DNA of 64,000 nt, taken from positions 6,916-70,915 of the forward strand of contig CAIMMI010000304.1 of assembly GCA_903842505.1 (NCBI GenBank), read 5' to 3'. Shown piece after piece: positions 15,768 through 60,032 of this stretch; position 1 is the first letter of the stretch; each line of letters begins with the position of its first letter. The translations under genes and the position numbers were made by a program. This DNA is from an uncultured Verrucomicrobiota bacterium. GTDB lineage: Bacteria > Verrucomicrobiota > Verrucomicrobiia > Limisphaerales > UBA9464. The notes under the pieces were generated by a model. That model saw only the letters and a list, made by a program, of their open reading frames with translations, was not told the origin of the DNA and did not search any database.

Positions 15768-15807
15768 CAGCAGCGCAGGCCCGCAGGGGGAACGGTCCGG
15801 GCGCGGG

Positions 15808-36664: not shown

Positions 36665-36952
36665 TCTTCGGGGGCGGCGCCGGGATGGCCTTTCGGCGGG
36701 GTAGGGAAGCTGGGATCCGGCGCGCTATTCCATGGTTGGCTGGACCGGGACGCTTGACTTAACAGGGTCACCATGACACTCCGATTAAAGTGTCGCGCCG
36801 ATTCGGGCATCTGAGAATCCTTGGCACCATCGGCACCTCGATGGTCCGGGTGATCTGAGTTCCCTGACTCTACCCCGGCCATTTGACCGATCATCGTGCG
36901 AGACAACATTATTGCCATTAACCCGAAAGCATCGTCAGCAAAGTCAAGTATC

Positions 36953-38539
36953 ATGAACATTAGGACCCACTCCGGCCTGTCGCTGGGGCTTGCGGCGGTC
37001 ATCACTGCCTTCGCCCTTCCTGCGATCCATGCTCAAGAGAGCGACCGCGAGATGCGGACGCGCGACCGCCAGAACTATGAAGTCCTGGTGGGTGATTACT
37101 ACACCGGTCGCTCGCCCTACTTCCGCGGCGGCGTGAAGCCCGAGGCTCCGGCCCCCATCGTGGTCGCCCAGGCCAAGCCTGCTCCGGCCGCGAAGCCGTC
37201 TGGCCCCTGCAGCACCACCACCACCGGTCTGGTCAACCTGACCAAGACCATGCCCTCCGAGGCGATCCTCGGTGAGCCTTTCACCTACGAGCTCAAGCCC
37301 CTCGCCACCGGTTGCGCCGGCAACGTGGTCATCACCGACACGCTGCCCGAGGGCGTCTCCCTCGTCAGCACCTCCCCGCAGGCGACCGTCAACGGCAGCC
37401 AACTCGTCTGGAACCTGGGCAACCTCGACGCCGGCGAGTCCAAGACCCTCAAGGTCACGGTCAAGCCCGAGAAGGAAGGCGCCCTGTTCTCCTGCGCGAC
37501 GATCAAGGCCGATCCCCGGGTTTGCGCCCAGACGATCGTCGGTCGTCCCCAGTTGGCCATCGACAAGACCGGGCCGGAAATCGCCCAGCTCGGTGCTGAC
37601 GTCGATTACAACGTGACGGTCAAGAACACCGGAACGTCCGTCGCCAAGAACGTTGTCGTGACCGACAAGTACCCGGCGGGTCTGGGTGGCGTTGCCGAGA
37701 AGACCTTCAATATCGGCGACCTGGCCCCCGGCCAGTCCCGCACGATCCCGGTCAAGCTCAAGGCCGCCGAACGCGGTCGTCATTGCAACGTGGCGGTCGC
37801 CACGTCCAGCAATGCCGGCACCGTCCAGGACGATGCCTGCACGACGATCGTCAAGCCCGGCCTGAAGCTGGTGAAGACGGGCGACGACAAGCGCTTCATC
37901 AACAAGCAGGCGTCCTACAAGCTCGTGGCCTCGAACACGGGTGACACCGAGTTGACCGGCGTGGTCGTGACCGACACTGCTCCGGCGCAGACCAAGATCG
38001 TCAGCGCCCCCGGCGCCTCGATCGCTGGCAACACGGCGACCTGGAACGTGGGGTCCCTCAAGCCGGGCGAGAAGAAGGAGTTCGCGGTTGTCCTGACCTC
38101 CACCCAGGCTGGCAAGTGGTGCAACGTTGCCAGCGTCAACACTTCCCAGGGCCTGCGTGAGAACGCCGAAGCCTGCACGACCTGGGTTGGCATCTCGGCC
38201 ATCCTCGTTGAGGTCGTCGACGATCCCGATCCGATCCAGGTGGGCGAGTCCACCGTCTACACCATCCGCATCACCAACCAGGGCAATGCGGACCTGACGA
38301 ACATCAACACCGTCGCTCAGTACGCCAAGGAGGTCACCCCGGTGTCCTCGCAGGGCGGCACGGTCGATGGCAAGACGGTCAAGTTCCCGACGGTGCCTCG
38401 CCTCGGTGCGAAGCAGTCGGTGACCTACACCGTCACGGGCAAGGGCGCTGCTGAGGGTGACCACCGCCTCAAGGTGGTTGTGACCGAAGACCAGCTGCTC
38501 TCGCCGGTCGTCGAGGAAGAGTCCACCCGCGTCTACTAA
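36953..38539 (+). CDS. secreted DUF11 (conserved repeat domain) protein
   Basis: Signal peptide MNIRTHSGLSLGLAAVITAFALPAIHA. There are about five to six tandem repeats of the pattern Y.L.v.N.G...a.nVvvtD.lP.G...vs......W.iG.L.pGes..i.V. Confidence 0.8.
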   Translation: MNIRTHSGLSLGLAAVITAFALPAIHAQESDREMRTRDRQNYEVLVGDYYTGRSPYFRGGVKPEAPAPIVVAQAKPAPAAKPSGPCSTTTTGLVNLTKTMPSEAILGEPFTYELKPLATGCAGNVVITDTLPEGVSLVSTSPQATVNGSQLVWNLGNLDAGESKTLKVTVKPEKEGALFSCATIKADPRVCAQTIVGRPQLAIDKTGPEIAQLGADVDYNVTVKNTGTSVAKNVVVTDKYPAGLGGVAEKTFNIGDLAPGQSRTIPVKLKAAERGRHCNVAVATSSNAGTVQDDACTTIVKPGLKLVKTGDDKRFINKQASYKLVASNTGDTELTGVVVTDTAPAQTKIVSAPGASIAGNTATWNVGSLKPGEKKEFAVVLTSTQAGKWCNVASVNTSQGLRENAEACTTWVGISAILVEVVDDPDPIQVGESTVYTIRITNQGNADLTNINTVAQYAKEVTPVSSQGGTVDGKTVKFPTVPRLGAKQSVTYTVTGKGAAEGDHRLKVVVTEDQLLSPVVEEESTRVY

Positions 38540-38562
38540 GACCCGGTTGACCCACGAATTCG

Positions 38563-38598
38563 AAGAGCCGCTCCTCACGGGGCGGCTCTTTTTTTGTT
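38563..38598 (+). terminator. rho-independent terminator
   Basis: AAGAGCCGC (38563-38571), a 10-nt loop, GCGGCTCTT (38582-38590), running into TTTTTTTGTTT. Confidence 0.75.
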
Positions 38599-38634
38599 TC
38601 GACCCGGCCGGCCGGATCGCGGGATCGTCGACCC

Positions 38635-39960
38635 ATGATCCCGCGTCTGAGCCGCCTTTGGGTGTGTGTCTTGTGTTTGGCGCGTCCCTTTCTGGTCGAA
38701 GCCTCCCCGCTGGAGTCGCTCCCTCCCCCAATCATCCGGAACGACGACCAGTTGCTCGATGCGATCGAGCGGACCGCCTTTGAGTATTTTCGATCCGAAG
38801 CGGATCCCGTCACCGGACTGATCAAGGATCGGTCCACGCCCGACTCCAAATGCAGCATCGCTGCCGTTGGGTTTGGCCTCAGCGCCTGGTGCATTGGTGT
38901 GGATCGGGGGTACGTCCCCCGCGAAGAGGCCGCCACCCGCGTTCGGGCGACCCTCGCGACGTTTCTCAACGGTCCGCAGGGCGACTCGCCCACCGGCGTC
39001 ATCGGGCACCGGGGTTGGTTCTATCATTTCCTCGAGATGGGGTCGGCAACCCGGGCCTGGAAATGCGAACTGTCCTCCATCGACACCGCCCTGTTCCTTG
39101 CTGGCGCCCTGGATGCCTCGAGGTTCTTCACCGGTTCGGCGCCGGTTGAACGCGAAATCCGGCGGATGTCGAACGCACTCGTCGACCGGGTGGATTGGCG
39201 TTGGATGTGTGACGGGGCAGACGTGCTGTCGATGGGGTGGCATCCGGAACGCGGGTTCATTCCCCGCTGCTGGGTCGGGTACAACGAGGCCATGCTGCTC
39301 TACGTCCTGGCACTCGGGGCTTCCCGCGATCCGCTTCCTCCAACGGCGTGGGGTGCCTGGACACGCGGCTACGTCTGGAGCACCCAGCATGGGCAATCCT
39401 ACCTCGATTTCCCGCCCTTGTTCGGACACCAGTACTCCCATTGCTGGATCGATTTCCGTGGGCGGGCGGACTCGTGGATGCGGTCACGAGGGATCGACTA
39501 CTTCGAGAATTCCCGCCGCGCCGTCCTGGCCCAGCAGGCGTACTGCATGGCCAACCCGGGCGGCTTCGCGGGGTATGGCCCTCTCCTCTGGGGGATCACC
39601 GCCTGTGATGGACCCCAAGGCTATGGCGCGCGCGGCGCTCCTCCGGCTGAAAATGATGATGGAACCCTGGCGCCGACGGCGGTGGGTGCCTCGCTCCCGT
39701 TCGCACCCGAGATCTGTCTGCCGACACTCCGGAACCTCCATCAAACGTGGGGAACGCGGCTCTGGACAAAGTACGGCTATCGGGACGCGTTCAATCCCTC
39801 GCGGGACTGGGTGGCAACCGACGTCCTCGGCATCGATCAGGGAGCCATGATCCTGATGGTGGAGAACTACCGCAGCGGTGCGGTCTGGAAGCGGATGGAA
39901 GGGCATCCCGTGATCCGTCGAGGCTTGCGGCGTGCGGGGTTCAAGCGGTTGGAGCGGTGA
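38635..39960 (+). CDS. glucoamylase-family protein (PF10091-like, GH144 endo-beta-1,2-glucanase-like)
   Basis: Signal peptide. Segments CSIAAVGFGLSAWCIG and GWHPERGFIPRCWVGYNEAMLLYVLALGS resemble the bacterial glucoamylase/DUF3131 family. The identification is from memory only. Confidence 0.55.
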   Translation: MIPRLSRLWVCVLCLARPFLVEASPLESLPPPIIRNDDQLLDAIERTAFEYFRSEADPVTGLIKDRSTPDSKCSIAAVGFGLSAWCIGVDRGYVPREEAATRVRATLATFLNGPQGDSPTGVIGHRGWFYHFLEMGSATRAWKCELSSIDTALFLAGALDASRFFTGSAPVEREIRRMSNALVDRVDWRWMCDGADVLSMGWHPERGFIPRCWVGYNEAMLLYVLALGASRDPLPPTAWGAWTRGYVWSTQHGQSYLDFPPLFGHQYSHCWIDFRGRADSWMRSRGIDYFENSRRAVLAQQAYCMANPGGFAGYGPLLWGITACDGPQGYGARGAPPAENDDGTLAPTAVGASLPFAPEICLPTLRNLHQTWGTRLWTKYGYRDAFNPSRDWVATDVLGIDQGAMILMVENYRSGAVWKRMEGHPVIRRGLRRAGFKRLER

Positions 39961-40026
39961 TTTTGGGAGTTGAATGGAGTGGCGTTTGATCGGTCGAACG
40001 GGCACTCATTTGTCGCATTGTTCTCC

Positions 40027-41331
40027 ATGAAGACGACCTACGGGATCGGAATAGCATTGGGCCTGGCCTTCGCTTGCGTGGCGACGGCAGGAGAAAACTG
40101 GGCGCAGTGGCGTGGACCCGCCTTCAACGGTTCCACCGTGGCCCGGGGACTGCCGGGCGAGTTGAGCCGCGAGAACGTCCTGTGGTCCGCGCCTGTTCCG
40201 GGTCCGTCGGGTGCCACACCGATCATCTGGAACGACCACGTCTTCACCCATTCCCCGGATGAGTCCGGCAACCTCGCGCTGATCGCGATGGATCGTCGGT
40301 CCGGCAAGGAGCTTTGGCGCCAGGAGGTAGGGATCGGAAACAAGGAGAAGGGCCGGAACAACATGGCGGCGCCGTCCCCTGTGACGGACGGCGAGCGGGT
40401 GATCTCCCTGTTCGGGACCGGGGATCTGGCGGCGTTCGGAATGGATGGAAAGCCGCTCTGGAAGCGGAGCCTTGGAAAGGATTTCGGCCGTTTCTCGGTC
40501 ATGTGGATCTACGGGAGTTCGCCCCTGCTTTATCAGGGACGGCTGTACATCCAGGTGCTCCAGCGCAGCCCGATGCCCGCCGACTACCCGTTGTACGACG
40601 GCAAGCCGGAGCGGGAGTCCTTTCTGCTGTGCGTCGATCCTTCCAATGGCAAAGACCTCTGGCGCGAGGTCCGCAAGACCGACTCCACGCTGGAGAGTCA
40701 GGAGTCGTATGCGACCCCCATTCCGTTTCAAGGAAAGGACGGAACCCAACTCCTGATCGTGGGCGGTGATCATGTCAGCGGCCATGCCTTGGCAGACGGG
40801 AAGGAGATCTGGAGGGCGCGGCTCTATGAGAAGCGCGACGACTGGTACCGCATCGTGACCTCTGCCGTGACGCACCAGGGCTTGATTTACGCCTCTGGAC
40901 CCAAGGGACAGCCGGTGGTCGCGTTCCGCGAGGGCGGCAAGGGAAACGTGACCGACACGGCGGTCGCCTGGCGGTTTACCGAGAGCCCGACGGACTGGAG
41001 CACGCCCCTGGTCCTGGACGGAAAGCTGTTCGTGCTGGATGGCGGCAAGAAGGTCCTCAGCCGCCTGGATCCGGCAACGGGCGAGAAGAAGTGGAGCGGC
41101 AAGCTGCCCGTGCGGGAAGTGATCTGGGGTTCGCCGACCGGCGCCGACGGAAAGATCTATCTCCACAGCGAGGAGGGAACGGTGGTGGTCTGCGACGCCG
41201 GGGACTCCTTCAAGGTACTCGGAACCTTGACCTTTGAGGGGGAGGGGCCCTGCAGGGGGAGCATCGCGGTCGCCCAGGATCAGGTCTTCGTGCGCACGGC
41301 GAAGAAGCTGCATTGCTTCGGACGAAAGTAA
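40027..41331 (+). CDS. PQQ-like beta-propeller repeat protein (BamB-like fold), secreted
   Basis: Signal peptide followed by ENWAQWRGPAFNGS, a characteristic opening of this family. Repeated W/G-rich blade motifs follow. Confidence 0.7.
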   Translation: MKTTYGIGIALGLAFACVATAGENWAQWRGPAFNGSTVARGLPGELSRENVLWSAPVPGPSGATPIIWNDHVFTHSPDESGNLALIAMDRRSGKELWRQEVGIGNKEKGRNNMAAPSPVTDGERVISLFGTGDLAAFGMDGKPLWKRSLGKDFGRFSVMWIYGSSPLLYQGRLYIQVLQRSPMPADYPLYDGKPERESFLLCVDPSNGKDLWREVRKTDSTLESQESYATPIPFQGKDGTQLLIVGGDHVSGHALADGKEIWRARLYEKRDDWYRIVTSAVTHQGLIYASGPKGQPVVAFREGGKGNVTDTAVAWRFTESPTDWSTPLVLDGKLFVLDGGKKVLSRLDPATGEKKWSGKLPVREVIWGSPTGADGKIYLHSEEGTVVVCDAGDSFKVLGTLTFEGEGPCRGSIAVAQDQVFVRTAKKLHCFGRK

Positions 41332-41395
41332 CTTTCTGCGGAACCGAGGCGCCCTCTTGCGTGTCACAGAGGGCAACATCCCAGAATGACGCCCA

Positions 41396-42649
41396 TTGAT
41401 TCGCATGAAGCGTGTGGTTGATCCGTTGATTCATCGGTCCGGTGCGCTGAGGCGGGGTTTGCTCGACCCGTCGAGCCTCTTCTCCGTCGTCGCGACCGCC
41501 AGCGTCCTGCTGCTGGCCGGCTGCGGAGAGTCTTCCCAAGCCGGGCCTGGCCCCGCCCTGGTCGCCGAGTTTGCACCCGGCGTTACCTACACCAACGAAC
41601 ACATCGCGACCGGCCCTTGGTCGATCCATGTGGTCCGCGCCCGCAGGGATTCCGGTGAGTTCGGCTTGGTGTCGGTCCATGCGAAGCGCAGCGCCCTTGG
41701 GCTCTCGACCCTCAGCCAGCAGGTCCGCTCCGTGCCAGCCGCCCTCGGGATCCCGGTGGCTGCGGTGAATGGGGATTTCTACCAGCGCGACCGGGCCTAC
41801 GCCGGTGATCCCCGAGGCCTTCAGATCGTCGAAGGAGAGTTGATCAGCGCGCCCATCGGAGGCGTCGCGTTCTGGATCGATGTCGCCGGGCAACCGCATG
41901 CCACCAATATCCAACCCCAGTTGGAGGTGTCCTGGGCTCCCGGGGCTTCCCAGGCCATCGGGTTGAACGAAGACCGGCAACCCAACGAAGTCGTTCTCTA
42001 CACGCCGTCGATCGGTTCGAGTACGCGAACTTCCGGCGGGCGCGAGTGGGTGCTGAAACCCGCCGATACCAACTCGCCGATGGCCCGGATCGGGTTCTCC
42101 GGGCCGATGACCGTGGCGGAGGTGAAGGATGGGGGGAGTTCGCCAGTGCTTCCCGGTGCCTGGGTGCTCAGCGCCGGGCAAAGTGTCCTGCGCAAGAATC
42201 CGGGCCTGGCCGCTCTGGGAGTGGGTGCCCGACTGGATATCCGTTTGGGGAGTGTTCCGGACCTTTCCGGTGCCACCCAGGCCATCAGCGGTGGGCCGGT
42301 GCTGGTCCGGGGCGGCAAGGCCCTGAAGATCGTGCCCCCGCGCTCGGACTCCTACGAGTTCAGTTCGATGGTTGAACGCCATCCGAGGTCGGCTGTCGGA
42401 TGGAGTCGGACGCACTTCATTCTCGTGGAAGTGGACGGGCGGCAGAATGGGTTGTCCGTGGGCATGACTCTCGAAGAACTGGGTGCGACACTGCTGCGAT
42501 GGGGCGCCGAGGAAGGCATCAATCTGGATGGTGGGGGATCCGCCACCTTCTGGTGCAACGGGCAGATCCAGAACAGCCCCTGCGATGGGGGCGAACGGGC
42601 CATCGCGAATTCCCTCGTCCTGGTCCGCAAGACGGCCGCTCGTCCGTGA
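41396..42649 (+). CDS. phosphodiester glycosidase family protein (NAGPA / uncovering-enzyme-like), lipoprotein
   Basis: Lipobox LLLAGC. AAVNGDFY...AGDPRGLQIVEGELIS, then HPRSAVGWS..HFILVEVDGRQ..SVGMTLEELGATLLRWGAEEGINLDGGGSATFW. Confidence 0.8.
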   Translation: MIRMKRVVDPLIHRSGALRRGLLDPSSLFSVVATASVLLLAGCGESSQAGPGPALVAEFAPGVTYTNEHIATGPWSIHVVRARRDSGEFGLVSVHAKRSALGLSTLSQQVRSVPAALGIPVAAVNGDFYQRDRAYAGDPRGLQIVEGELISAPIGGVAFWIDVAGQPHATNIQPQLEVSWAPGASQAIGLNEDRQPNEVVLYTPSIGSSTRTSGGREWVLKPADTNSPMARIGFSGPMTVAEVKDGGSSPVLPGAWVLSAGQSVLRKNPGLAALGVGARLDIRLGSVPDLSGATQAISGGPVLVRGGKALKIVPPRSDSYEFSSMVERHPRSAVGWSRTHFILVEVDGRQNGLSVGMTLEELGATLLRWGAEEGINLDGGGSATFWCNGQIQNSPCDGGERAIANSLVLVRKTAARP

Positions 42650-42663
42650 AACTTCTCCAACGC

Positions 42664-43857
42664 ATGAACCGCGCATGCCTCATGCGATGGAGATGGGTCA
42701 GGGAATGGGCGTTGGTCCTCGTCCTGGGGTTCGGCTTGCCTGCCTCTGCCGGACCCGGTGCCGTCGCCGTTTCCCCGACCAATCCTCCGCCACGGGTGGC
42801 GGGGACCGACCGGGGTTTCTCGTACCGGAATGACCTGCGGACCGACCCGACGTGGTCCATCCACGTGTTCAAGGTCGACCGGAGTCGGCGGGATCTCCTG
42901 CTGACCAGCACGACCGGTGCGCACGGGGCGATCGGGATGAGCCGGTTATCGGATCAATTGCAGGACTTGCCCGGCTCGTGGGGGACGCCGATCGCTGCCG
43001 TCAATGGCGACTTCTACACCACGGAGGACGCCTACCAGGGGGATCCCCGGGATGTTCAGATCCGGAACGGGGAACTGATCAGCGCCCCCTCAGGGCATGC
43101 TTCGTTCTGGGTGGATCGGACGGGCGAGTTCCGCACCACCAACGTCACCTCCAATCTCCGTGTCCGATTGCCCGATGGTTCGGTGCATCCGATGGGGCTG
43201 AACGAACGGAGGGAGAGCGAGTCGATCGTCCTCTACAGCGCTGCGATCGGATCTTCGACGCGGACCTCCGGGGGGGTGGATCTGGTCCTGACCAACGCGC
43301 CCGGCGAGTCCTGGGTTCCGCTTCAGGTCGGCAAGCAACTCCGAGCGAAGGTGAGTGAGGTGCGCAACGGGGGAGATGCTCCGGTGCCCCTGGACGGACT
43401 CGTGCTGTCGGTAGGATCCCGCATGCCCGAGGCCGTCCGCAGGCTGCCGGTCGGTTCGGAAGTCCGCCTGGACTTCGAGACCACGCCGGATCTTTCCGGG
43501 GTGGATACGGCGCTGGGGGGTGGCCCCACCTTGGTGAGGGCAGGGAAGGCGATGACCTGGTCCAACATTCAGGTCCGCCATCCGCGGTCCGCCATCGGCT
43601 GGAACAAGACCCACTACTTCCTGGTCGAGGTGGACGGTCGGCAGCCGGATCTTTCGGTGGGAATGACGTTCCCGGAGTTGGCGGATTACATGGCGCAGTT
43701 GGGATGCGAGGAAGCCATCAACCTGGACGGCGGCGGCTCAGCGACGATGTGGGTGCTCGGTCAGGTCGTGAACAGTCCCTCCGAAGGCCGCGAACGTCCG
43801 GGTGCGAATTCCCTCGTTGTCCTCAAGCGCCCGAATCCGGAGCCGGTCCGGCCGTGA
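42664..43857 (+). CDS. phosphodiester glycosidase family protein, paralog 2
   Basis: Signal peptide at ATG 42664. AAVNGDFYTTEDAYQGDPRDVQIRNGELIS and HPRSAIGWNKTHYFLVEVDGRQPDLSVGMTFPELADYMAQLGCEEAINLDGGGSATMW. Confidence 0.8.
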   Translation: MNRACLMRWRWVREWALVLVLGFGLPASAGPGAVAVSPTNPPPRVAGTDRGFSYRNDLRTDPTWSIHVFKVDRSRRDLLLTSTTGAHGAIGMSRLSDQLQDLPGSWGTPIAAVNGDFYTTEDAYQGDPRDVQIRNGELISAPSGHASFWVDRTGEFRTTNVTSNLRVRLPDGSVHPMGLNERRESESIVLYSAAIGSSTRTSGGVDLVLTNAPGESWVPLQVGKQLRAKVSEVRNGGDAPVPLDGLVLSVGSRMPEAVRRLPVGSEVRLDFETTPDLSGVDTALGGGPTLVRAGKAMTWSNIQVRHPRSAIGWNKTHYFLVEVDGRQPDLSVGMTFPELADYMAQLGCEEAINLDGGGSATMWVLGQVVNSPSEGRERPGANSLVVLKRPNPEPVRP

Positions 43858-45413
43858 CTTGGCGTGGGTTCGTATTCGCTCTGTTGGTGGGACTCCTGGC
43901 TTCGCCCCAGGCTTCCGCAGCGGACACATGGGCGGTGGGGGCAGCCGTGGCCAAGGTCCGGATCGAGTGTCCCCCCGCAGCGATCGTTGAACTTCGGGGC
44001 AAGCCCCGCGACTGGGTGACCTGCTCGATTGCAACCGATGGCCGGCCACCCGTGATGGGCCGGATGAGGGTCAAGGGCTCGGTCGGCAGCTTCCGTCCCA
44101 TCGATGAGTCTCCAAGCCTGACCTTGGAGGGGCAGGGCGGCGCCGAGGTCTTCCGAGGTGTTCGGCGCTTCCATCTCGACAACGCCGTTCAGGATCCCGG
44201 CCATCTGGATGCCGCCTTGGGTGCCGCCGCGTTTCGCCGGATGGGAATCGAGTCCCCGCGGGTCCAGTGGGCGACTGTGGAACTGAACGGTCGGGACCTC
44301 GGCTGGTACGTCCTCAAGGAAGGATTCACGGCGCAGTTCGCGGTGCGCGCCGGTGACATGGCGGGCGCGGTGCTCGCAGAACCTTTGGCGGGTAGCGATC
44401 TCGGTGGCTCGTTCGATCTCAAGTCGGGAAGCGGTGAAGGGGAACGCCAGCAGGCCCGGGATCTCTGGGCGCGTCTTGGCGACCTCAGCCGGTGGGAGGA
44501 TCCGGAAGCCCGATGGCAGGGGATCGAACGAATGCTGGGGATCCGCGAACTGCTCGACTTCGCCGCGACGGAGGTGGTGTTGGCGCACCGCGATGGCTAC
44601 GCCCTGGCCCGGAACAACTATCGGCTGATCTTCTCGGGGGATCGTGTTCGGTGGGTGCCTTGGGGCATGGATCAGTTGCTGGTTTCGGACACTTTCACGG
44701 TTCAGCCTGAGTTTTCAGGGGAGGCTCTTCGGGCACTTCGGGGTACGAAGGGACTTGAGCCGGCCTGGCGGGAAGCGGTCGCGCGGGCTGCTTCCGTGGT
44801 TTTGGACGCGGACTGGTCCGAGACCTGGCTGCGGGAGACCCGGGATCGGGTTGCGCCGGAACTCCGAAGCCGCGAGCGGTCCCAGTTGGAGGAAGGCATT
44901 GTGGACCTCCGACGCCGTTTGGCGGGGCGGCGCCAATTTCTGAACCAGGTCCTTTCTCAGTGGGGCGACCCTTCACCCGCGTGGACCCAGGGCGTCCTGA
45001 AGCTCTCCGGTTGGAAGGTCGTGGACGTTCCACCGGACGGACGGGCGGAGAGCGTGACCCATCTCGCCGGTCTGGGCGGACCCGCCCTCGGTCTGGTGGC
45101 GGGTCCGGTGACGTCGTCGTCGTGGCGTTCCTCGGTGCGGTTGGATCCGGGGGAGTACCGCTTCAGCGGTCGAGTTCGGACCTCCGGGGTGCTGCCGCTC
45201 CCCTTCGGAACCCGTCAGGGAGTGGCACTGCGGTTGCTTGGAGAAGGGGTGCAGTCCCAGGAATTGGTCGGAGACAACAATTGGCGGGAGCTATCCGTTG
45301 ATTTCCGCGTCGCCGACCAAGGCCGGATTCTGTCATTTGTCTGTGAACTTCGCGGGCGCGCGGGCCAGGTCTGGTTCGATCGCGAGTCGCTCCAACTGTT
45401 GAGATTGAAATGA
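43854..45413 (+). CDS. CotH-like kinase family protein with C-terminal CBM-like beta-sandwich
   Basis: The GTG start at 43854 overlaps the upstream stop (GTGA). Signal peptide present. [53 protein letters not shown] and NNYRLIF...[12 protein letters not shown] match CotH motifs. Confidence 0.7.
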
Positions 45414-46123
45414 ACGCGGTATCGCAACCGAACCGGAAGTCCGGTGCTCCGGCAAATCCCGGAGCCGCTTGGCTGGGCGGCAGGGCCTTCACCCTGATCG
45501 AATTGCTCGTGGTGATCGCGATCATCGCGATCCTCGCCGGGCTGCTTCTCCCGGCCCTCAGTTCGGCCAAGTCCAAGGCGAAGGTGACCGTCTGCATCAA
45601 CAACCAGCGTCAGGTTTCCCTCGGGTTCCGGGTCTGGGCCAACGACAAGAACGACAAGTTCCCCTGGAACCTGTCGCCCACCAACGGCGGTTCCCTCGAT
45701 TCGCCCGACTGGACCGATCACTTCCGCCTCGCCTCCAACGAACTCGCCTCGCCGAGGATCCTGATCTGCGCCGCCGACAAGGAACGCAAACCCGGCACCA
45801 ACTGGGTCGACCTCGATGGACTCATGAATGTCAGTTACTTCATCGGGACCCTCGTCGATCCGCAGAAGCCCATGACGATCTTCTCGGGTGACTTCAACGT
45901 GAATGGCGGCGGCGGTGGTTTTGACCCGTCCTGGAGCCAGTTCCTCGGCAACTCGATCGACGCCTCGTGGGACCAGCAGGTCCATCAGAAGAGCGGATGC
46001 CTCGCCCTCGCGGATGGCAGCGTCAAGCACACCAAGACGCCCGCCCTCCGGGCCCAGATCAGCGAGTCGATCGCCAACGGCATGAGCAACGTCGTGTTCT
46101 CCAAACCGCGCGGGGTCTTCTAG
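45410..46123 (+). CDS. prepilin-type N-terminal cleavage/methylation protein with H-X9-DG motif (DUF1559-like)
   Basis: [35 protein letters not shown], and a C-terminal [12 protein letters not shown] (H-X9-DG). The ATG overlaps the CotH-like stop (ATGA at 45410-45413). Confidence 0.8.
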
Positions 46124-46158
46124 GTCGAGGTACCGATCCTGTCCCGCCCTTCCTGTCC

Positions 46159-46770
46159 ATGGTATCCCGAAGGTCACTCCCGGTTTCCGCACTCCTCGCC
46201 GGATTGCTCGGTGCGGCGGCGTTGGTGGGAACGTTTGTTCAATGGCCACCGCGCGAAGACGCGGTGATCCCGGAACGGATCGGCCGGGAGATGGCGTCCG
46301 AAGCCCTGAGACTCCGTAGTCCCGGCGGACGGATCGTGGTGCTGGCGCGGGATACCGATGAATTTCCCCAAAAGTCCGTGGACGCAGCTCTGGCCTCGTT
46401 CCAGACGGAGTTGGATCGGGCGGGCGCCAAGGCGGATTCGGTGCGCCGCTTCCAGGTGGATCCCTTGCGGATGGTGCAGGTTCCGCCGGGGGACTTTTTT
46501 GAACTGATGCGGCGCTCGAAGGCGGGTGACGTGTTGGTCTCGTTCATGGGTCCGCCGCTGTTGAGCGAGGAACAGCGTGCGAAGCTGGGCGAGATTCAGC
46601 CCAAGGTCGTGGCCTTCTGCCCGGGTTACCTCCCTCGGTACATCAACCTGGCCCTGATGGGAGAGCGCGGGTTGCTTCATGGAGGAGTCGTGGCGCGGAC
46701 GGAGGCCTCGGGCGACCGATACGAGGCCCAGTACGAAAAGTTCGCCCTGGGTCCCAAGCCCCGTCCCTGA
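46159..46770 (+). CDS. membrane-anchored hypothetical protein
   Basis: N-terminal anchor MVSRRSLPVSALLAGLLGAAALVG. No recognisable family. It sits inside the tightly spaced operon. Confidence 0.45.
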   Translation: MVSRRSLPVSALLAGLLGAAALVGTFVQWPPREDAVIPERIGREMASEALRLRSPGGRIVVLARDTDEFPQKSVDAALASFQTELDRAGAKADSVRRFQVDPLRMVQVPPGDFFELMRRSKAGDVLVSFMGPPLLSEEQRAKLGEIQPKVVAFCPGYLPRYINLALMGERGLLHGGVVARTEASGDRYEAQYEKFALGPKPRP

Positions 46771-46773
46771 GCC

Positions 46774-47454
46774 ATGACCTTTCCCAACTCCAATCCGCGT
46801 TCCGCGTTTGCCCTCCCCGACCTGGTGGCGGTACTGGCGGCCGGGGTTTTCCTGGCAGCGCTCGTGCTGGTGCCGCTGGAACGGACCAAGCGGGCAACGC
46901 ACCTCAAGACCTGCGAGGGCAACCTGATGAAGGTGTCCCGGGCAGTGCTCGATTTTGCCAAGGATCACTCCGACACCTTGCCCGCCCCTCAGGAGGGTCC
47001 CGGCGAACTCCAGTGGTGGTATAAGGAACAGGTGAAGGGCTACGCCGGAATCAAGGGTCCTTCAACTTCCCAGGACGTCCTGTTCGCCTGTCCGGACGAC
47101 CGAGGCTATACCGATCCCAAGCCCTTCCATCAGACGGCGCGCTTCGACTATGGGAGCTACTGCTTCAATGGCGTGACGCTGCCCGGAGTTCCGACAGTCG
47201 CCGGGTGGCAGGTCGGTTCCATCGTCGATCCCAGAAAGACGCTGTTGATGATGGAATGGACCGCACACGGGCCCCTTTCCTGGCATCGAAGCCGCACGGG
47301 ACGTCGCAACGCCCCGTTCTACCGCGACGCCGAGAGCGTCGTGGGCTTTGTCGATGGCCGCGTTGCCTTGGTCCCGATCTACTATGATGGTTTCAACGCG
47401 GCTTATACCCGGGATCCCATCGCCGGATACTCCTACCGATACAGCGGCCGCTGA
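46774..47454 (+). CDS. divergent pseudopilin-like protein (degenerate prepilin leader)
   Basis: SAFALPDLVAVLAAGVFLAALVLVPL resembles G-F-T-L-x-E with Asp at the +5 position. The C-terminal VGFVDGRVALV resembles the DG end of DUF1559 proteins. Confidence 0.5.
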   Translation: MTFPNSNPRSAFALPDLVAVLAAGVFLAALVLVPLERTKRATHLKTCEGNLMKVSRAVLDFAKDHSDTLPAPQEGPGELQWWYKEQVKGYAGIKGPSTSQDVLFACPDDRGYTDPKPFHQTARFDYGSYCFNGVTLPGVPTVAGWQVGSIVDPRKTLLMMEWTAHGPLSWHRSRTGRRNAPFYRDAESVVGFVDGRVALVPIYYDGFNAAYTRDPIAGYSYRYSGR

Positions 47455-47485
47455 CGCCCCTTTTCCTGAAGCTGTTTGTTGATCC

Positions 47486-49465
47486 ATGAACGCTCAATTC
47501 CCTGATCCGTCCGCCCGCCCGGCCCGGGCTATGCCTGGCTGCTGTTTCTCCGTAATCGCGTGGGTCGCGTTGCTGGTGAACCTCGCCTTGGGTGTGCCAC
47601 AGGCCCACGCGGACCCGTTGGTCTCGGCCTGGGAACCTCTGTTCAAGGGAATCGACCTGATCCGCGGCACCAACGCGACGGCTTCGGGCGATTTCCAGAA
47701 CCGGATGGTGATGTACTGCCTCCGGGTGGACCTCCGCGACCCGGACATCCGGCTGCATCCCTCGCCTCGGATCGACGGATTCGTGCCGGGCAGTCGCGAG
47801 ACGGCGGGCATGACCGTAAGCCGCTTCGTCGAGACCCAGGGGGTGCAGGTCGCCGTCAACGCGAACTTCTTCAATCCGCAGGAGTATTATCTTCCGGAAG
47901 GCACGCCGATGTCCGTTTCGGGTCTGCAGATTTCCGGCGGTCTGGAGGTGTCGCCCCAGAGCAACAGCCAGCAGACCGCTTCGGTGTTTTTCGATGCCAC
48001 CAACCGGGTAACCGTCGTCCACACGAACTGGCCACCGGTCTCGACCGCGGGAGTGCTGAACGCGGTTACCGGCGACTACCCCGTCGTCGTGAATGGAATC
48101 AACATCGGTCGACAATATCTCAACCAGCCCGGGTCCATCCACGACACGCATCCCCGCACGGCGATCGGTGCCTCGGTCGACCGGCGTTTCCTCTATCTGA
48201 TGTGCATCGACGGTCGGCAGTCCCACAGCACCGGAGCACTCGACTACGAAACCGGAGCCTGGATGCTCCTCGTGGGTGCGCACGATGCCGTCAACATGGA
48301 CGGAGGCGGATCCGCCACGATGGCCATGGAGTCGAGCGTGGGCACGGCGATGCGCATCAACCTGTCGAGTGCCGCGGCTGACTCCGGCAAGGAGCGTACC
48401 GTGGGCAGCCATCTGGGCGTGTTCGCCCGGCCACTCCAGGGTTTCATCAACGACCTGAATGCGATCCCGGATGACGTGTCCGCCTCGATCTCCTGGACCA
48501 CCACCGGCGCGGCATCGACGCGACTGGAGTACGGTCCCACGATGGACCTCGGTCAGACCCTGCCGGTGCAGTCCGCTTCGTCCACGAACCACGCCGCCCT
48601 CATCCGGGGCCTGTCTCCGGGCACCGAATACTTCTATCGCGCCGTGTCCGTCTCGGCCGTCGATGGGACGGTCCACACTTCCTTGGTCCGCAGGATGGTG
48701 ACGGTGAACTACGCCGTTCCTCAGGAGGTGATCCCGATCAACGGTTCGTGGCGCTTCTTCGCCGGGACATTGGATGGCCAGCCCTGGGTCCAACCTTCGT
48801 TCAACGACTCGACCTGGAGCGGCCCCGGCAACGGGATCCTCTGGGCGCACGCGACCCGCAACAACCCGGCGACCGGTGTCGTACCGGTGGGAACCCGGAT
48901 CACCAGCATCAATGGCGGCACGGGATTCCCATACACCACGTATTACTTCCGGACCTCCTTCAACCTGCCAGCCGTTGCACCTGGAACCCAACTCCGCTTC
49001 GTGGGCCGGATCGATGACGGCGCCGTCGTCTACCTCAACGGCAAGGAACTGCAACGCATCCGGATGGCGGACGCACCCACCGAGATCTCGTCGTCCACTT
49101 TCGCGCTGGGGTTTGGATGCTCGGGCGACGCCACCTGCGACGACGTCTTCGAGGCCACCGGGGATGGCTTCCTCGCAGCGGGGGACAACGTCCTGGCCGT
49201 CGAGGTGCACAACTACAACGCGCGTTCGACCGATATCAGCTTCGGTCTCTCGATGGCAGTCGCCCAGCCCCGCATTGAGCGGCCTGAATTGAGGTCGGTC
49301 ACCGACGATGCCGGTTCCCGGATCGAATGGACTCGCGGCGGCTTCCTCCTCCAGGAAGCTCCTTCACCCGCCGGCCCGTGGACGGATGTCGTCGGACCGG
49401 TCGTGGTCAGTCCCTACCGGATCTCGCCGACCTCGGAGTCGAGACTCTATCGGCTGGCGCGGTGA
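47486..49465 (+). CDS. secreted phosphodiester glycosidase paralog 3 fused to FN3-like, lectin-like and FYRL-tail modules
   Basis: Signal peptide. VAVNANFF and HPRTAIGASVDRRFLYLMCIDGRQ...GAHDAVNMDGGGSATM. FN3-like ISWTTTGAASTRLEYG...LSPGTEYFYRAVS. The C-terminal module is homologous to that of the 22154-25342 protein. Confidence 0.75.
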   Translation: MNAQFPDPSARPARAMPGCCFSVIAWVALLVNLALGVPQAHADPLVSAWEPLFKGIDLIRGTNATASGDFQNRMVMYCLRVDLRDPDIRLHPSPRIDGFVPGSRETAGMTVSRFVETQGVQVAVNANFFNPQEYYLPEGTPMSVSGLQISGGLEVSPQSNSQQTASVFFDATNRVTVVHTNWPPVSTAGVLNAVTGDYPVVVNGINIGRQYLNQPGSIHDTHPRTAIGASVDRRFLYLMCIDGRQSHSTGALDYETGAWMLLVGAHDAVNMDGGGSATMAMESSVGTAMRINLSSAAADSGKERTVGSHLGVFARPLQGFINDLNAIPDDVSASISWTTTGAASTRLEYGPTMDLGQTLPVQSASSTNHAALIRGLSPGTEYFYRAVSVSAVDGTVHTSLVRRMVTVNYAVPQEVIPINGSWRFFAGTLDGQPWVQPSFNDSTWSGPGNGILWAHATRNNPATGVVPVGTRITSINGGTGFPYTTYYFRTSFNLPAVAPGTQLRFVGRIDDGAVVYLNGKELQRIRMADAPTEISSSTFALGFGCSGDATCDDVFEATGDGFLAAGDNVLAVEVHNYNARSTDISFGLSMAVAQPRIERPELRSVTDDAGSRIEWTRGGFLLQEAPSPAGPWTDVVGPVVVSPYRISPTSESRLYRLAR

Positions 49466-49558: not shown

Positions 49559-52258
49559 TCAGGCCGGACGCAGGAACGTCTTCAGGTAACGGCCCGTGTG
49601 CGACTCGCGCACGCGGCCGACCTGCTCGGGCGTTCCTTCAGCGACGATCCGGCCACCGCCAGAGCCGCCCTCAGGTCCCAGGTCCATGACCCAGTCGGCC
49701 TCCGCGATGAGGTCAAGGTTGTGCTCGATCACGATCACGGTGTGGCCGGCATCGACGAGGCGTTGCAGCACTTCGACGAGGCGGCGCACGTCCTGCAGGT
49801 GCAGCCCAATGGTGGGTTCCTCGAGGATGAACAGGTCCTGTCGGGCAGCGCCGCGACGCCCTGGGGCCGGCAGGCCATCGGCCGGTGACGGCTTGAGCCC
49901 GGTGAGGAGGTGGGAGACCAGCTTGATTCGTTGTGCTTCTCCGCCGCTGAGCGTGGGGCTGGTCTGGCCCAGTCGCAGGTAGTCGAGCCCGGTATCGCGC
50001 AGCGCTTCCAGGGGGCGCCGCATCCGGCCATGGGCTGAGAAATACTCGATGGCCTCGGCCACCGACAGGTCGAGGACGTCGGCAATGGACTTTCCATTCC
50101 AACGGACGTCGAGTGTCTCCGGATTGAACCGCCTTCCGCCGCAGGTATCGCAGCGGACCTGCGCCGGGGGCAGGAAGTTCATTTCGATCGAGATCGAACC
50201 AGTCCCTTCGCATTGGGGGCACCGACCCTGGCTGGAATTGAAGCTGAAGCGGCCCGGGCCGTAGCCGCGAAGCCGGGACTCAGGTGCCGATGCGAACAGT
50301 TCCCGGATGTGATCGAAGAAGCCGACGTAGGTGGCCGGTGTGGAACGGGGAGTGCGGCCGATCGGGGACTGGTCCACCTCATGGACCGCGGTGAGTTCCT
50401 CGAACCCGGTGAGGCGCGGCCCGCTCTTCGCCGACTTTCCTTTGGCGAGGGCCTCGGTAACGGCCGGGAAGAGGCAGTCCTTCACGAGCGTGCTCTTGCC
50501 CGAGCCCGACACCCCGGTGACGACCGTGAACCGTCCCAGTGGAAAGCGCGCGGTGACGTCCTGCAGGTTATGCAGGCCCGTCTTGTGCAAGGTGAGCCAA
50601 CCCGATTTCGCCTTGGGATCCACCGGTCGACGCTGGCCGCGGGCTGGGTGCTTCGCGCGGTCGCGGAGGCACGCGCCCGTGATCGACGTCGGGTGTTGGC
50701 TCAGCTCTTCCAGCGTTCCTGCCGCAACAACCTCGCCTCCCCGGACCCCAGCGCCCGGTCCAAGGTCGATGATGTGGTCCGCACGGCGCATGGTTTCCTC
50801 GTCGTGTTCCACGACCACGAGGGAGTTGCCACGATCCCGGAGTCGTCCGAGCGCATCGAGCAGTTGATCATTGTCCCGGCTGTGCAGCCCGATGGTCGGC
50901 TCGTCGAGGACGTAGAGGACGCCGGAGAGGTTGGATCCGAGTTGGGCTGCCAATCGGATGCGCTGGGCTTCGCCGCCCGACAAAGTCGTGATCGATCGGC
51001 CCAGTTGCAGGTAGCCGAGCCCGACCTCGCACAGGAAGCGGAGTCGCTCGCGGATCTCGGGGAGGATGTCCCGCGCAATGACGGCACTTCGGTCGGTGGC
51101 CTGGACACGTTCCGACCAGGCATAGGCTTCGGCGACCGTGGCGCAGGCGAACGCATCGACATTGGGTTCGGCGTCGAGGTCGCCGGGTTCGGTTCCCTTT
51201 GCCGTGGGAATCGACAGCGGAAGGCGCACGGCCCGCGCATCCGCGCGCAACCGTCCCCCCAGGCACTCGGGACATGTCTCGCGCTGTCCTTCGGCCCAGC
51301 GCCACCAGTTCTCCTCGACGGCGTCGGCGTTGGCCCCGCGATCGACCTCTGGCAGATGGAAGAGTTCGCCGAATCCTCGGCACTTGGGACACCATCCCTG
51401 GCTGGAGTTGTAACTGAAGTTCTTCGGGTCGAGTGGCGGGAAACTCGTGCGGCATTTCGGGCACGCCCGCTCGGTGGAATGGACCGAAACCTCCCCCTTC
51501 GCATCGAGTGCCATGGCGACTCCCCGGCCGGCCCGGAGCGTCGCTTCGATCCGCGTGCGCAGGGCTTCGTCCGGCTGGGTGTTCCGGAGGATGCTCCCCG
51601 TGACGACCTCCAGGTCGTGCTCCTTGAAACGGTCGAGCTTCCTCGGAGTACCCGTTGGAACGAGTTCGCCATCGACCCGCACGAACTCGCATCCGTTCTG
51701 CTGGGCCCATTCAAAGACTTCGAAGTGGAATCCCTTTCGGTTCCGGACCATCGGCGCCAGCAACTGGAGCTTACCCCGCTTGCGCGCCTCGGCGCACAGC
51801 GTCGCCGCCACCTCGTCCCGGGTCTGGACCGAGACCGCCACCTCGCAATCCGGGCAGTGCTGTACGCCGACCCGCGCGAAGAGGAGGCGCAGGAATTGGT
51901 AGATCTCCGTCACCGTCGCGACGGTGCTCTTGCCGCCGCCGCGCGAGGTCGTCTGCTCGATGCTGACGGTCGGGGGAAGTCCAGCGATGAGGTCCACGTC
52001 CGGACGCGCCATCTGCTCCACGAACTGCCGGGCATACGCGCTCATGGAATCGAGGAAGCGCCGCTGTCCCTCGGCAAAGAGCAGGTCGAACGCGAGCGTG
52101 CTCTTGCCGCTCCCGCTGACGCCCGTGACGACCACGAACTTTCCCCGTGGGATGTCCACGGAGATGTCTTTCAGGTTGTGCTCCCGGGCTCCCCGGATCT
52201 GGATGGCATCCGTGCCGGCGAGTTCCTCAGCTTGATTCCGCACGCGCTCACGATTCAC
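49559..52258 (-). CDS. uvrA: excinuclease ABC subunit A family protein (UvrA or UvrA paralog)
   Basis: Two ABC modules ([10 protein letters not shown] twice, LSGGEAQRI[RK]L twice) and zinc-module cysteine pairs (CPDC, CPKC..CPKCRG, CPEC, CPQCEG..CDTCGG). 899 aa. Confidence 0.85.
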
Positions 52259-54623: not shown

Positions 54624-55424
54624 TCAGAAGCCGTCCGGGGGACGGTTGTTGGAGTCCTGGCTCAGGTTGAGCACGCGAAGGTAGTCCTGGCGCTTCACGA
54701 ATTGCGCGTGGCCATCCGTGAAATTCATGGAAGCCCCCAGGTCCCCGTGGTTGTCCTCCTTGTCCGGCCAATTGTTGTTGGTACTCCCCAGATTGCTTTC
54801 CGCACGGTCGTCCGCGTCGAGCATCAGCAGGATGTTGGAGGGGCCGGGTGCCGAGCGAAGGGCACCGGTGTAGCGTGTGATGGTCTTGGAGTTCACCGAG
54901 GACTCGGTTTTCTTCAGCGTCACCACGGTTCCGTCTCCACGGACATCGGCCATCGTGCCGAAGATCTCGTAGCTCGTTCCAAACGCCTTTTTGTTCACTG
55001 CGTTGTCCGTCAGATCGTAGACGTAGGTGGAGGAGGAGAACGGCTTCCGGTACATGTTCGTCCGGATCGAGTGCCGCGTGGATGGGCACGTATAGCTCTT
55101 GAAGGGCCGGACGAATCCCGGCCAAAGCCACGAGGCATCATCGTCCGAGGCGCTCCGATCCGAGAACTCGGTGGGTTCAAATCCCGTTTGCGCCCATGTG
55201 GGGGCGGTGAGATGGCCGCGGTTGTCCATGGCGTAGAGGACCGAGGCGATGCCGAGTTGCTTGAGGTTGTTGAGGCAGCCGATGCGCCGGGCGCGTTCCT
55301 GGGCCTTGGACAAGGCCGGTAGGAGCATGCCTGCCAGGATCGCGATGATGGCAATCACCACGAGGAGCTCAATCAGGGTGAACCCGGACGAACGGATTCG
55401 GCTGGGGAGTCGTCGACGATTCAT
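54624..55424 (-). CDS. prepilin-type N-terminal cleavage/methylation protein, DUF1559-like
   Basis: [46 protein letters not shown]. The C-terminal [14 protein letters not shown] is H-X10-DG-like. Start taken at ATG 55424. Confidence 0.8.
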
Positions 55425-55524
55425 GGAGACGGAAGGATGCAGGAAAGTGGGGGAGAGGCGGGGATGCAGAAACCGGAGGGGAGCTTGCGCTCCCCTCCGG
55501 CACACAGGTCAGGATGGGATGGGA

Positions 55525-59598: not shown

Positions 59599-60032
59599 GA
59601 CTGCAGATGTGGGCTCGTCGCGACGGATCGCCGTCGTACGGGACCTTCCAACCTTTACAGTCAGAGCGGCAGGCGACGGCACCAACGAACCCGCAACAAT
59701 CCAGTGACCGGACCGGTTCGTTCCTGTGGCGGGTCGTCGCGAAACCGTCTCCGCACTGAGACATTCCAACGTCGATGTGAGGAAACGGTGTCGACTGTGA
59801 CGGAGGGGCGATCGGTGTCGGGCAAATCAACGGGTTGGACAAACCCTCACAGAACCAGAACGATCCGCCGGTGGGTAAAACTCTCACCCCCTTGCGAACA
59901 GTTCCTGCGTTCCCCCGGATTTGCAGGAACAGGATCGGCTGCCTCGACCCACTTCCCGCCGCCGCCGTGTACCCGCGGTTCTCGCAAGTCCCCGCTTTCC
60001 GACAATCGCCCTCCACTCGGTAGGACCCAACG

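Follow-up and report, generated by a model that had tools for sequence, protein, structure and literature searches.

Introduction

Two enzymes known from other organisms provide the closest points of reference for the genes described here, a cluster within a stretch of 64,000 nucleotides (the window) of contig CAIMMI010000304.1, from the assembly GCA_903842505.1 of an uncultured Verrucomicrobiota bacterium of the Limisphaerales. One is NAGPA, the mannose-6-phosphate uncovering enzyme, whose family (PF09992) is that of the phosphodiester glycosidases. The human enzyme has a sugar-phosphate loop, DGGGS (D286-S290), whose mutation abolishes activity (PMC13474241), and structures are available for NAGPA (PDB 6PKU) and for bacterial proteins of the DUF2233 type (3OHG, which is BACOVA_00430, and 6OZD). 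The other is CotH of Bacillus, a Ser/Thr kinase of the spore coat (5JD9 and 5JDA) that acts in the mother cell and that, in B. subtilis, is inactivated by mutation of its catalytic residues, D228 and D251 (PMC7821199). CotH proteins are found outside the cell as well, among genes concerned with extracellular polysaccharide, where their role is undefined. Genes for secreted CotH proteins, along with those for a polyphosphate polymerase (VTC) and DUF4956, are accessory genes of Gram-positive Pel operons (PMC7112168, 10.1101/2024.04.20.589940); the pairing of CotH with VTC is seen again in C. perfringens NELoc-2 (PMC11677781); and a CotH component of cellulosomes has been described as "without any defined function" (PMC12774918). 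For none of these contexts are NAGPA or pilin-like genes reported.

The cluster considered here consists of nine genes, g1 to g9 (Table 1). Seven of them, g3 to g9, encode three proteins of the NAGPA type (g3, g4 and g9), a CotH-type protein (g5), two pilin-like proteins (g6 and g8) and an anchored protein (g7). An initial annotation, made from the DNA sequence by itself, took all nine to be a tightly coupled operon of secreted products and asserted that no characterised pathway combines these families. The assertion agrees with the literature searched, in which no paper pairs CotH with NAGPA or DUF2233. The operon needs to be redrawn: the block of nine genes is real, but the conserved unit is the seven-gene cassette g3-g9, built on a NAGPA-NAGPA-CotH core, and g1 and g2 are specific to the lineage. 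Since the same order of core genes is met with in dozens of species that are only distantly related, we consider the cassette to be an undescribed functional unit.

Results

Conservation of the cassette across Verrucomicrobiota

When one genome of each species was scanned, a relative of the CotH-type protein turned up in 290, and the best 80 loci (31-76% CotH identity; designated by L and a number) were taken from these. The proteins of the window were compared with these loci by tblastn and the matches were tallied. The loci informative for the upstream side were the 62 in which 2.6 kb or more precedes CotH and, for the downstream side, the 55 in which 5.5 kb or more follows it. A NAGPA gene lies directly upstream of CotH and on the same strand at 50 of the 62 (two genes at 40 loci, one gene at 10). 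Downstream of CotH, g6-g7-g8-g9 are found in this order at 24 of the 55, g6-g9 at 4 and g6 only at another 4, and at 5 of the 55 (L037, L044, L046, L059 and L076) a module g7-g8-g9-g6 occupies the opposite strand, beside g4-g5. The order g3-g9 is kept at CotH identities of only 31-38%, while the flanking genes are unrelated. Even the start-stop overlaps recur, that of 4 nt between g4 and g5 in L001, L002 and L003, and that between g5 and g6 in L001 and L002. The suggestion that these genes form a functional unit is borne out by both observations, the recurrence of the overlaps and the conservation of gene order far beyond close relatives. The closest genome, a metagenome-assembled genome (MAG) of the Limisphaerales, has the same ten genes, g0-g9 (g0 being the gene that precedes g1), and the same neighbours upstream and downstream.

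The degree of conservation differs among the parts. Median identities between distant orthologues and the proteins of the window are 58% for g8, 55% for g6, 51% for g3, 50% for g4, 44% for g7, 43% for g9 and 35% for g5. The two pilin-like proteins are thus the most constrained parts of the cassette. The initial annotation had suggested looking for conservation of the neighbourhood in both Verrucomicrobiota and Planctomycetota; the counts above establish it in the former, and the latter were not seen among the relatives found. The 80 loci are nearly all labelled Verrucomicrobiota. Nine come from MAGs with odd labels (Cyanophyceae, Bifidobacterium, Limnocylindria, Kapaibacterium or Acidobacteria: L007, L012, L023, L028, L036, L046, L051, L074 and L080), which most likely reflect errors of binning or labelling rather than horizontal transfer.

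No further partner emerged when all other open reading frames (ORFs) of the 80 loci were clustered: no family was present at more than 9 of them. Type II secretion systems (T2SS), transporters, phosphatases and Stealth transferases were considered as obligatory extra partners and discarded, as none is recurrent. The pair that came out on top, PSCyt/PSD1 with DUF1501, is a generic pair of the Planctomycetota-Verrucomicrobiota-Chlamydiota (PVC) group.

The association was also approached from the side of NAGPA. A profile of g3/g4 orthologues was run against metagenome contigs, and the loci found were searched with hidden Markov models (HMMs) of CotH, g7, g8 and NAGPA. Where the NAGPA protein was at least 40% identical to g3/g4 and at least 1.5 kb of downstream sequence was available, CotH lay downstream at 7 of 11 loci. 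Neither CotH nor g6-g9 was present at the 56 loci with a more distant NAGPA (26-37% identity); at 24 of these the sequence extends for 1.5 kb or more in both directions. The difference between 7/11 and 0/56 implies that the association with CotH is specific to this subfamily of NAGPA. The association is strong, not absolute. At L091, L102 and L149 a NAGPA gene of the g3/g4 type has room for CotH beside it and none is present, and at L093 g6-g7-g8-g9 lie upstream of g4, with no CotH in the 4.4 kb downstream.

Certain variants of the cassette bring in other genes. At five loci (L021, L045, L048, L061 and L070) g9 is directly followed by a gene for a PstS-like phosphate-binding protein (PF12849, E = 1e-26) and then by a second, larger CotH with CHB_HEX_C_1/Fn3_assoc domains; L019 lacks the PstS-like gene but has the second CotH, making six loci with the latter. 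The cassette of the window has neither part of this extension. Short variants consisting of g4-g5-g6 (L025, L028, L062 and L081) end with a gene similar to the VTC polyphosphate polymerase (PF09359, E = 1e-39; positions 12360-13181 in L025), and a fifth locus, L082, has the VTC gene upstream. The smallest form, a triad without a pilin-like gene, is found in L003, L004, L014 and L015, and in L004 it is situated between genes for a CBM_4_9 protein and a GH127 enzyme.

The NAGPA-type proteins

All three NAGPA-type proteins match PF09992 well above the cut-off of 25 bits: g3 with E = 3e-31 (109 bits), g4 with 5e-35 (122 bits) and g9 with 2e-24 (87 bits). The DGGGS motif begins at residue 378 in g3 (nucleotides 42527-42541), 355 in g4 (43726-43740) and 272 in g9 (48299-48313), and it is kept in 40 of 43 orthologues of g3, all 49 of g4 and all 37 of g9. 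With this loop and with their sequence similarity to the NAGPA and DUF2233 structures (g4 matches 6OZD, 3OHG and 6PKU), the three proteins would be expected to be catalytically intact and to cleave sugar-1-phosphate diesters. They differ from the known enzymes in several respects. They are bacterial proteins whose identity to animal NAGPA, the core excepted, is less than about 25%; g3 and g4 have an insertion within the NAGPA domain, as judged by the Pfam match, which spans only the C-terminal part; and the cassette holds three paralogues coupled to a gene for a protein of kinase-like fold.

The presence of three glycosidases in one operon had been thought unusual, as if from a triplication. 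However, g3 and g4 share 43% identity and fall in separate orthologous groups, and g9 can be aligned with them over the catalytic core only. Hence these are three old paralogues, each conserved across the range of the cassette, not products of a recent triplication. The proteins differ in their export signals and architecture. The g3 product is a predicted lipoprotein (lipobox LAGC), and that of g4 has a signal peptide (the g4 stop codon overlaps the g5 start within GTGA). A division of labour among the three as lipoprotein, soluble enzyme and secreted enzyme was considered and rejected as a conserved feature, because by a loose pattern only about half of the g3 orthologues have the lipobox.

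In g9 three further parts are fused to the NAGPA domain: one FN3-like module, one that is beta-rich, and a tail at the C-terminus. The match to Pur_ac_phosph_N/fn3 is below the Pfam cut-off (25 as against 30 bits). An M11-peptidase/PKD protein encoded at 22154-25342 shares the middle and tail modules (48670-49465) with E = 6e-16 and 3e-5. A similar tail ending in [FY][YF]R[LV] is seen in four large secreted proteins of the window, namely g9, the protein at 22154-25342 and those at 55525-59769 (- strand) and 62040-63425; it may serve the proteins of this organism more generally as a C-terminal module for sorting or anchoring.

The CotH-type protein

The g5 product matches PF08757 over residues 90-277 (E = 2e-14, 54.3 bits against a cut-off of 23.8), and a profile built from 26 orthologues finds B. 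cereus CotH (5JD9) with E = 4e-21. Its catalytic loop comprises HRDGY (245-249), N254/N255 and D273. Within the 26 orthologues D247 (of HRDGY), N254/N255 and D273 (of GMDQ) are invariant, and HRDGY is present at 75 of the 80 CotH loci. D247 and D273 align with the Asp residues of FDG and WDYD in 5JD9, so that g5 shares with Bacillus CotH both membership of the kinase-like fold family and the aligned catalytic and metal-binding Asp residues. K74 is invariant as well; the profile alignment with 5JD9 begins at position 99, and K74 is therefore not mapped to the ATP-binding Lys of the N-lobe.

Unlike Bacillus CotH, g5 has a Sec signal, and it would accordingly act outside the cytoplasm, in an organism that does not sporulate. 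A further difference is a C-terminal domain of about 140 amino acids with no clear fold, possibly similar to a carbohydrate-binding module (CBM) to judge from a few marginal sequence matches. The secreted CotH proteins of Pel operons, NELoc-2 and cellulosomes make another parallel, but VTC, DUF4956 and pel genes are all absent from the cassette of the window.

The pilin-like proteins and the anchored protein

As annotated, g6 is a protein with a prepilin N-terminus: it matches PF07963 (26.5 bits, cut-off 21.2) and TIGR02532 (27.3 bits, cut-off 16.3) and has a canonical class III signal, G|RAFTLIELL. The H-X9-DG pattern occurs toward its C-terminus, at residue 192, and in 42 of 48 orthologues. 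By pattern, both features recall the H-X9-DG (DUF1559) proteins of the PVC group, and the signal also T2SS pseudopilins. PF07596 and TIGR04294 gave no match to g6 even at E = 5-10. The test with TIGR04294 is uninformative, since no protein matched it even at E = 10, including the product of a DUF1559-type gene in the window.

The relationship of g8 to pilins is less obvious. The protein of the window fails both PF07963 and TIGR02532, its class III signal is degenerate (A|FALPD), and it lacks H-X9-DG, a pattern found in only 1 of 35 orthologues. However, the consensus N-terminus of the orthologues is GFTxTDLLV, and their profile matches the N-termini of pilins (geopilin with E = 5.5e-5, PilE1, PilA and GspG). 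There are more than 1098 homologues, the best 120 of them at 56-98% identity, and some sources label them PulG-type pseudopilins. The AlphaFold2 (AF2) model, with a predicted local distance difference test (pLDDT) score of 77.5, shows a helix of 50 residues near the N-terminus (14-63) and a small beta domain. The consensus, the profile and the long helix fit the description of g8 as a degenerate pseudopilin, although the N-terminal helix is the one part that can be recognised. A Foldseek comparison of the model with the PDB produced no structural match, which sets g8 apart from the T2SS and DUF1559 proteins, as does the missing H-X9-DG. The identity between g6 and g8 is 26% (E = 2e-6), and by this alignment they are distant paralogues. 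The most invariant stretch of g8, residues 161-186 (EWTAHGPLSWHRSRTGxRNAPFYRDAES, nucleotides 47254-47331), includes the parts of the model with the lowest pLDDT, below 50 (residues 165-169 and 174-182). This stretch may be a loop that binds a partner or a ligand.

Neither g7 nor g8 matches a family of Pfam or NCBIfam. The roughly 100 homologue clusters of g7 are all unannotated, and an exhaustive profile search brought up 794 representatives, of which 454 reach E <= 1e-10 and 134 reach E <= 1e-30; nearly all are stand-alone proteins of about 200-230 amino acids, and none is clearly fused. The g7 protein represents a new stand-alone family of predicted membrane-anchored alpha/beta proteins. 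The AF2 model (pLDDT 91) has a transmembrane (TM) helix at residues 6-26 followed by an alpha/beta domain. In a Foldseek comparison the domain resembled, weakly and in a generic way, a single lobe of type-I periplasmic binding/LacI sugar-binding proteins (best E = 8e-5, TM-score 0.4-0.5), and a profile search of the PDB sequences found nothing. The invariant residues lie within the motifs RDT, DPLR, SFMGPP and AFCPG, at the C-terminal ends of strands in the model, an arrangement that would suit a ligand-binding crevice.

Genes for GspD, GspE, GspF, PilB, PilC and prepilin peptidase are absent from the 64-kb window, and none is recurrent within 10 kb of the cassette in the 80 loci. Any pilus-type machinery serving g6 and g8 may be encoded elsewhere in the genome. 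The window contains a second prepilin-type gene (54624-55505, - strand; N_methyl and a weak match to DUF1559/SBP_bac_10), directly downstream of and co-directional with a gene for a protein of 1414 amino acids with no Pfam match (55525-59769, - strand), so that a pilin-like gene is here too paired with one for an enzyme or giant protein.

Organisation of the gene block and its lineage-specific genes

ORF listing and translation reproduced the nine genes of the + strand and every junction originally given for them (Table 1). In order, the genes are separated by gaps of 66, 64 and 14 nt, the overlaps GTGA (43854-43857) and ATGA (45410-45413), and gaps of 35, 3 and 31 nt. The start of g3 may be either TTG at 41396 or an ATG 9 nt downstream. 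In the window, with a G+C content of about 64%, a screen of G+C by codon position agrees with most of these reading frames, g5 and g7 being below its thresholds. Export signals were judged by crude hydropathy rather than by SignalP. In agreement with the initial annotation, in which every product had a signal peptide, a lipobox or an anchor, all nine and also g0 have a hydrophobic stretch at the N-terminus with K/R before it, and the same crude check found no second TM-like segment in any of them. The domain assignments, originally made by motif, were confirmed with Pfam for GH144 (g1), the PQQ propeller (g2), the three NAGPA domains, CotH and the prepilin N-terminus, while the matches behind the labels CBM tail, FN3 and lectin-like were marginal.

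Table 1. Genes of the block, with the gene and the terminator that precede it
Feature	Position	Strand	Basis
g0, context gene, DUF11/CLIPPER repeats and Chlam_OMP6 (OmcB-like)	36896-38539	+	Pfam
Intrinsic terminator 3' of g0: 13-bp stem, 4-nt loop, T-tract	38562-38601	+	hairpin 38562-38591
g1, GH144	38635-39960	+	ORF listing and translation
g2, PQQ_2/BamB-like beta-propeller	40027-41331	+	ORF listing and translation
g3, NAGPA paralogue 1	41396-42649	+	ORF listing and translation
g4, NAGPA paralogue 2	42664-43857	+	ORF listing and translation
g5, CotH-type	43854-45413	+	ORF listing and translation
g6, prepilin-type	45410-46123	+	ORF listing and translation
g7, anchored alpha/beta protein	46159-46770	+	ORF listing and translation
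g8, pilin-like	46774-47454	+	ORF listing and translation
g9, NAGPA paralogue 3	47486-49465	+	ORF listing and translation

On the upstream side the block is bounded, as had been noted, by a strong terminator. It is the strongest terminator-like site between 36.5 and 51 kb and comes right after g0, and its hairpin and T-tract are kept in the g0-g1 spacers of five related loci (L001, L002, L007, L008 and L034). On the downstream side the limit is a convergent UvrA-like gene (49559-52258, - strand). Inside the block there are 11 terminator-like sites, all weak, as against 9.0 +/- 3.0 in shuffled sequence. A single strand, gaps of 66 nt or less, two 4-nt overlaps and the lack of a strong internal terminator all hint at co-transcription, and g1-g9 may on these grounds be expressed as one unit.

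The first genes of the block belong to the lineage rather than to the cassette. A conserved unit of nine genes had to be abandoned, as g0, g1 and g2 are linked to the cassette essentially only in close relatives. The match of g0 to DUF11 has E = 2.5e-48 and that to Chlam_OMP6 E = 1e-13. It is 90-97% identical in the same five loci, where CotH is only 50-76% identical, and absent from the others. Its third-position G+C, 0.86, is the highest in the window. It is probably a very abundant envelope protein. The product of g1, which has a signal peptide, matches PF10091 (E = 1e-76) and the GH144 enzyme XcSGL/XCC2207 (PDB 8XUL, E = 4e-115). The clan-defining residues of XcSGL and its E239Q mutant have been described (PMC12102758); E218, F263 and Y330 of g1 correspond to E239, F286 and Y367 in XcSGL numbering, whose offset of 14 was set by the 8XUL chain, itself the E239Q mutant. 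In sequence and in these three residues g1 thus resembles the GH144 endo-beta-1,2-glucanases (XcSGL, CpSGL), and it may be predicted to share their activity. What distinguishes it from other GH144 systems is the tie to the cassette, which is confined to this lineage: of the 80 loci only the five already listed have g1. The product of g2, a predicted secreted beta-propeller like BamB (PF13360, E = 1e-33), accompanies the cassette in the same close clade and also in L026 and L058.

Elsewhere in the window, an ORF of 617 codons (14106-15959, - strand) has a coding-like codon bias and no Pfam match at E <= 1e-5.

Discussion

How might enzymes related to NAGPA and CotH work together outside the cytoplasm? 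The reading that we tentatively prefer, with a probability of roughly 40%, is that the cassette encodes a functionally linked extracytoplasmic module for processing glycans with sugar-1-phosphate (phosphodiester) linkages, and that its purpose is acquisition of nutrients rather than modification of the cell itself. Cleavage of the glycosidic C1-O-P bond would fall to the three NAGPA homologues (g3 as a lipoprotein, g4 as a soluble enzyme, and g9 as a larger enzyme that also has FN3 and beta-rich modules), and the glycan that remains would be left with a phosphomonoester. The Sec-exported g5 protein, translationally coupled to g4, would act on the same substrate or on its phosphate. The g6, g8 and g7 proteins would form a tether or an export adaptor of the pseudopilus type for the module, served by machinery whose genes lie in another part of the genome. 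A GH144 beta-1,2-glucanase and a beta-propeller would be additions made upstream in this lineage. By these means the organism might gain carbon and phosphorus from polymers such as teichoic-acid-like, capsular or phosphomannan-type glycans. The class of substrate, the direction of the process and the roles of CotH and of the pilin-like proteins are what we infer. A degradative, scavenging role is favoured because the neighbours of the cassette include carbohydrate-active enzymes (CAZymes) and phosphate-binding proteins and do not include biosynthetic genes. The VTC-like genes that follow g6 at four loci add to the phosphate-related character of these neighbourhoods.

A number of points weigh against scavenging. 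In the literature searched there is no bacterial protein of PF09992 with a demonstrated substrate, so the activity ascribed to g3, g4 and g9 is extrapolated from a human enzyme less than 20% identical to them. The parts of the cassette can evidently work apart, since none of g6-g9 is found downstream of CotH at 18 of the 55 informative loci and no NAGPA gene directly upstream of it at 12 of the 62. The conserved cassette, as seen in the 80 loci, has no phosphatase, no transporter and no uptake gene of the SusC/D type. The C-terminal domain of g5 was tried as a CBM and the identification set aside, the matches being marginal: an endoglucanase, 8AG9, with E = 0.003, and, for 1 of 17 members, CBM_4_9_1 with E = 0.056. 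As for the pilin-like proteins, they may serve as substrates and not as machinery. Expression of the block is also a difficulty. No promoter-like site was found in the g0-g1 spacer (38540-38634) or its equivalents in five relatives, and there is little room for one. With the g1 ATG only about 35 nt past the end of the terminator, g1-g9 may rely on read-through from g0, with its high third-position G+C, or on a promoter of an unrecognised type. Finally, a kinase has no obvious place that we know of in a catabolic pathway, and we know of no supply of ATP outside the cytoplasm. What the kinase does, and what donates its phosphate outside the cytoplasm, is the main point that every model leaves unexplained.

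The strongest competitor is that the cassette serves the cell's own surface, its biogenesis or remodelling. The CotH protein would phosphorylate envelope proteins or exopolysaccharide, much as Bacillus CotH phosphorylates proteins of the spore coat; the NAGPA proteins would "uncover" phosphates of phosphoglycosylated molecules at the surface, by analogy with mannose-6-phosphate tagging; and g6 and g8 would be the fibre or scaffold that is modified, not a device for export. The characterised members of both enzyme families speak for it. The only CotH enzymes that have been characterised phosphorylate structural proteins of a cell-surface layer (PMC7821199), CotH is an accessory gene of the Gram-positive Pel exopolysaccharide operons (PMC7112168, 10.1101/2024.04.20.589940), and the only characterised NAGPA serves a biosynthetic tagging pathway. 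Structural subunits might also be expected to be far better conserved than the enzyme acting on them, and g8 and g6 (medians of 58% and 55%) do surpass CotH (35%) in this way. In the closest clade, moreover, the cassette comes right behind g0, a very highly conserved OmcB/DUF11 envelope protein, but that linkage extends to five close relatives only. A biosynthetic role would lead one to look for a glycosyltransferase, a Stealth-type sugar-1-phosphate transferase, a flippase or a polymerase, and none is recurrent near the cassette in the 80 loci. The triad exists at four loci without any pilin-like gene to be modified, and degradative CAZymes adjoin several loci. On balance our analysis makes such a role doubtful, if still worth keeping in mind.

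A bolder proposal, which we think improbable, combines writing and erasing in a pathway of phosphoglycan editing. A secreted enzyme of kinase-like fold would write or transfer phosphate on a glycan or surface protein, three homologues of the uncovering enzyme would remove sugar caps, and the whole set would be arrayed on a dedicated pseudopilus of g6, g7 and g8. The phosphate might come from exported polyphosphate, which the recurrent linkage with VTC genes makes a candidate donor for CotH. If the proposal is true, the pathway would be a bacterial counterpart of the two-step tagging with mannose 6-phosphate and would give extracellular CotH kinases their first defined role.

It is much harder to believe that the block is a locus for utilisation of beta-1,2-glucan, led by the GH144 enzyme, with the remaining proteins stripping phospho-substituents from cyclic or periplasmic beta-1,2-glucans. 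The closeness of g1 to XcSGL, the retention of the general-acid Glu and the two other clan residues, and the position of g1 at the head of the block would fit such a locus, but GH144 occurs with the cassette in only five closely related loci of the 80, and across the phylum the conserved cassette does without it. Phosphoglycerol and phosphoethanolamine on O6, the phospho-substituents that beta-1,2-glucans are known to bear, are not sugar-1-phosphate glycosidic diesters and so do not offer the bond on which NAGPA acts.

That abundant PVC paralogue families came together by chance, without a functional link, deserves practically no credence. Genes for NAGPA, CotH, PQQ propellers and H-X9-DG prepilins are all frequent in Verrucomicrobiota, and the window does have another prepilin/DUF1559 gene elsewhere, but the notion is refuted by synteny (g3-g9 kept in order at the lowest CotH identities despite changed flanks, with conserved overlaps, and both modules still adjacent in the five rearranged loci) and by the reverse test, where no distant NAGPA had CotH nearby, and identities of 31-76% argue against the 80 loci being redundant copies of one lineage.

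Each part of the cassette belongs to a known family, and clusters of secreted enzymes are common in Verrucomicrobiota, but the combination of NAGPA, CotH and pseudopilins is undescribed in the literature searched. That the coupling of NAGPA with CotH extends throughout the phylum and is specific to one subfamily leads to a testable hypothesis, that both act on the same phosphodiester-linked substrate. The enigmatic prepilin/H-X9-DG proteins of the PVC group, for which the literature searched contains no study of function, gain a defined set of enzyme partners. And if the substrate is a teichoic-acid-like or capsular phosphoglycan, then the cassette would provide the abundant Verrucomicrobiota of freshwater and soil with a route to recycle the carbon and phosphorus of bacterial cell walls.

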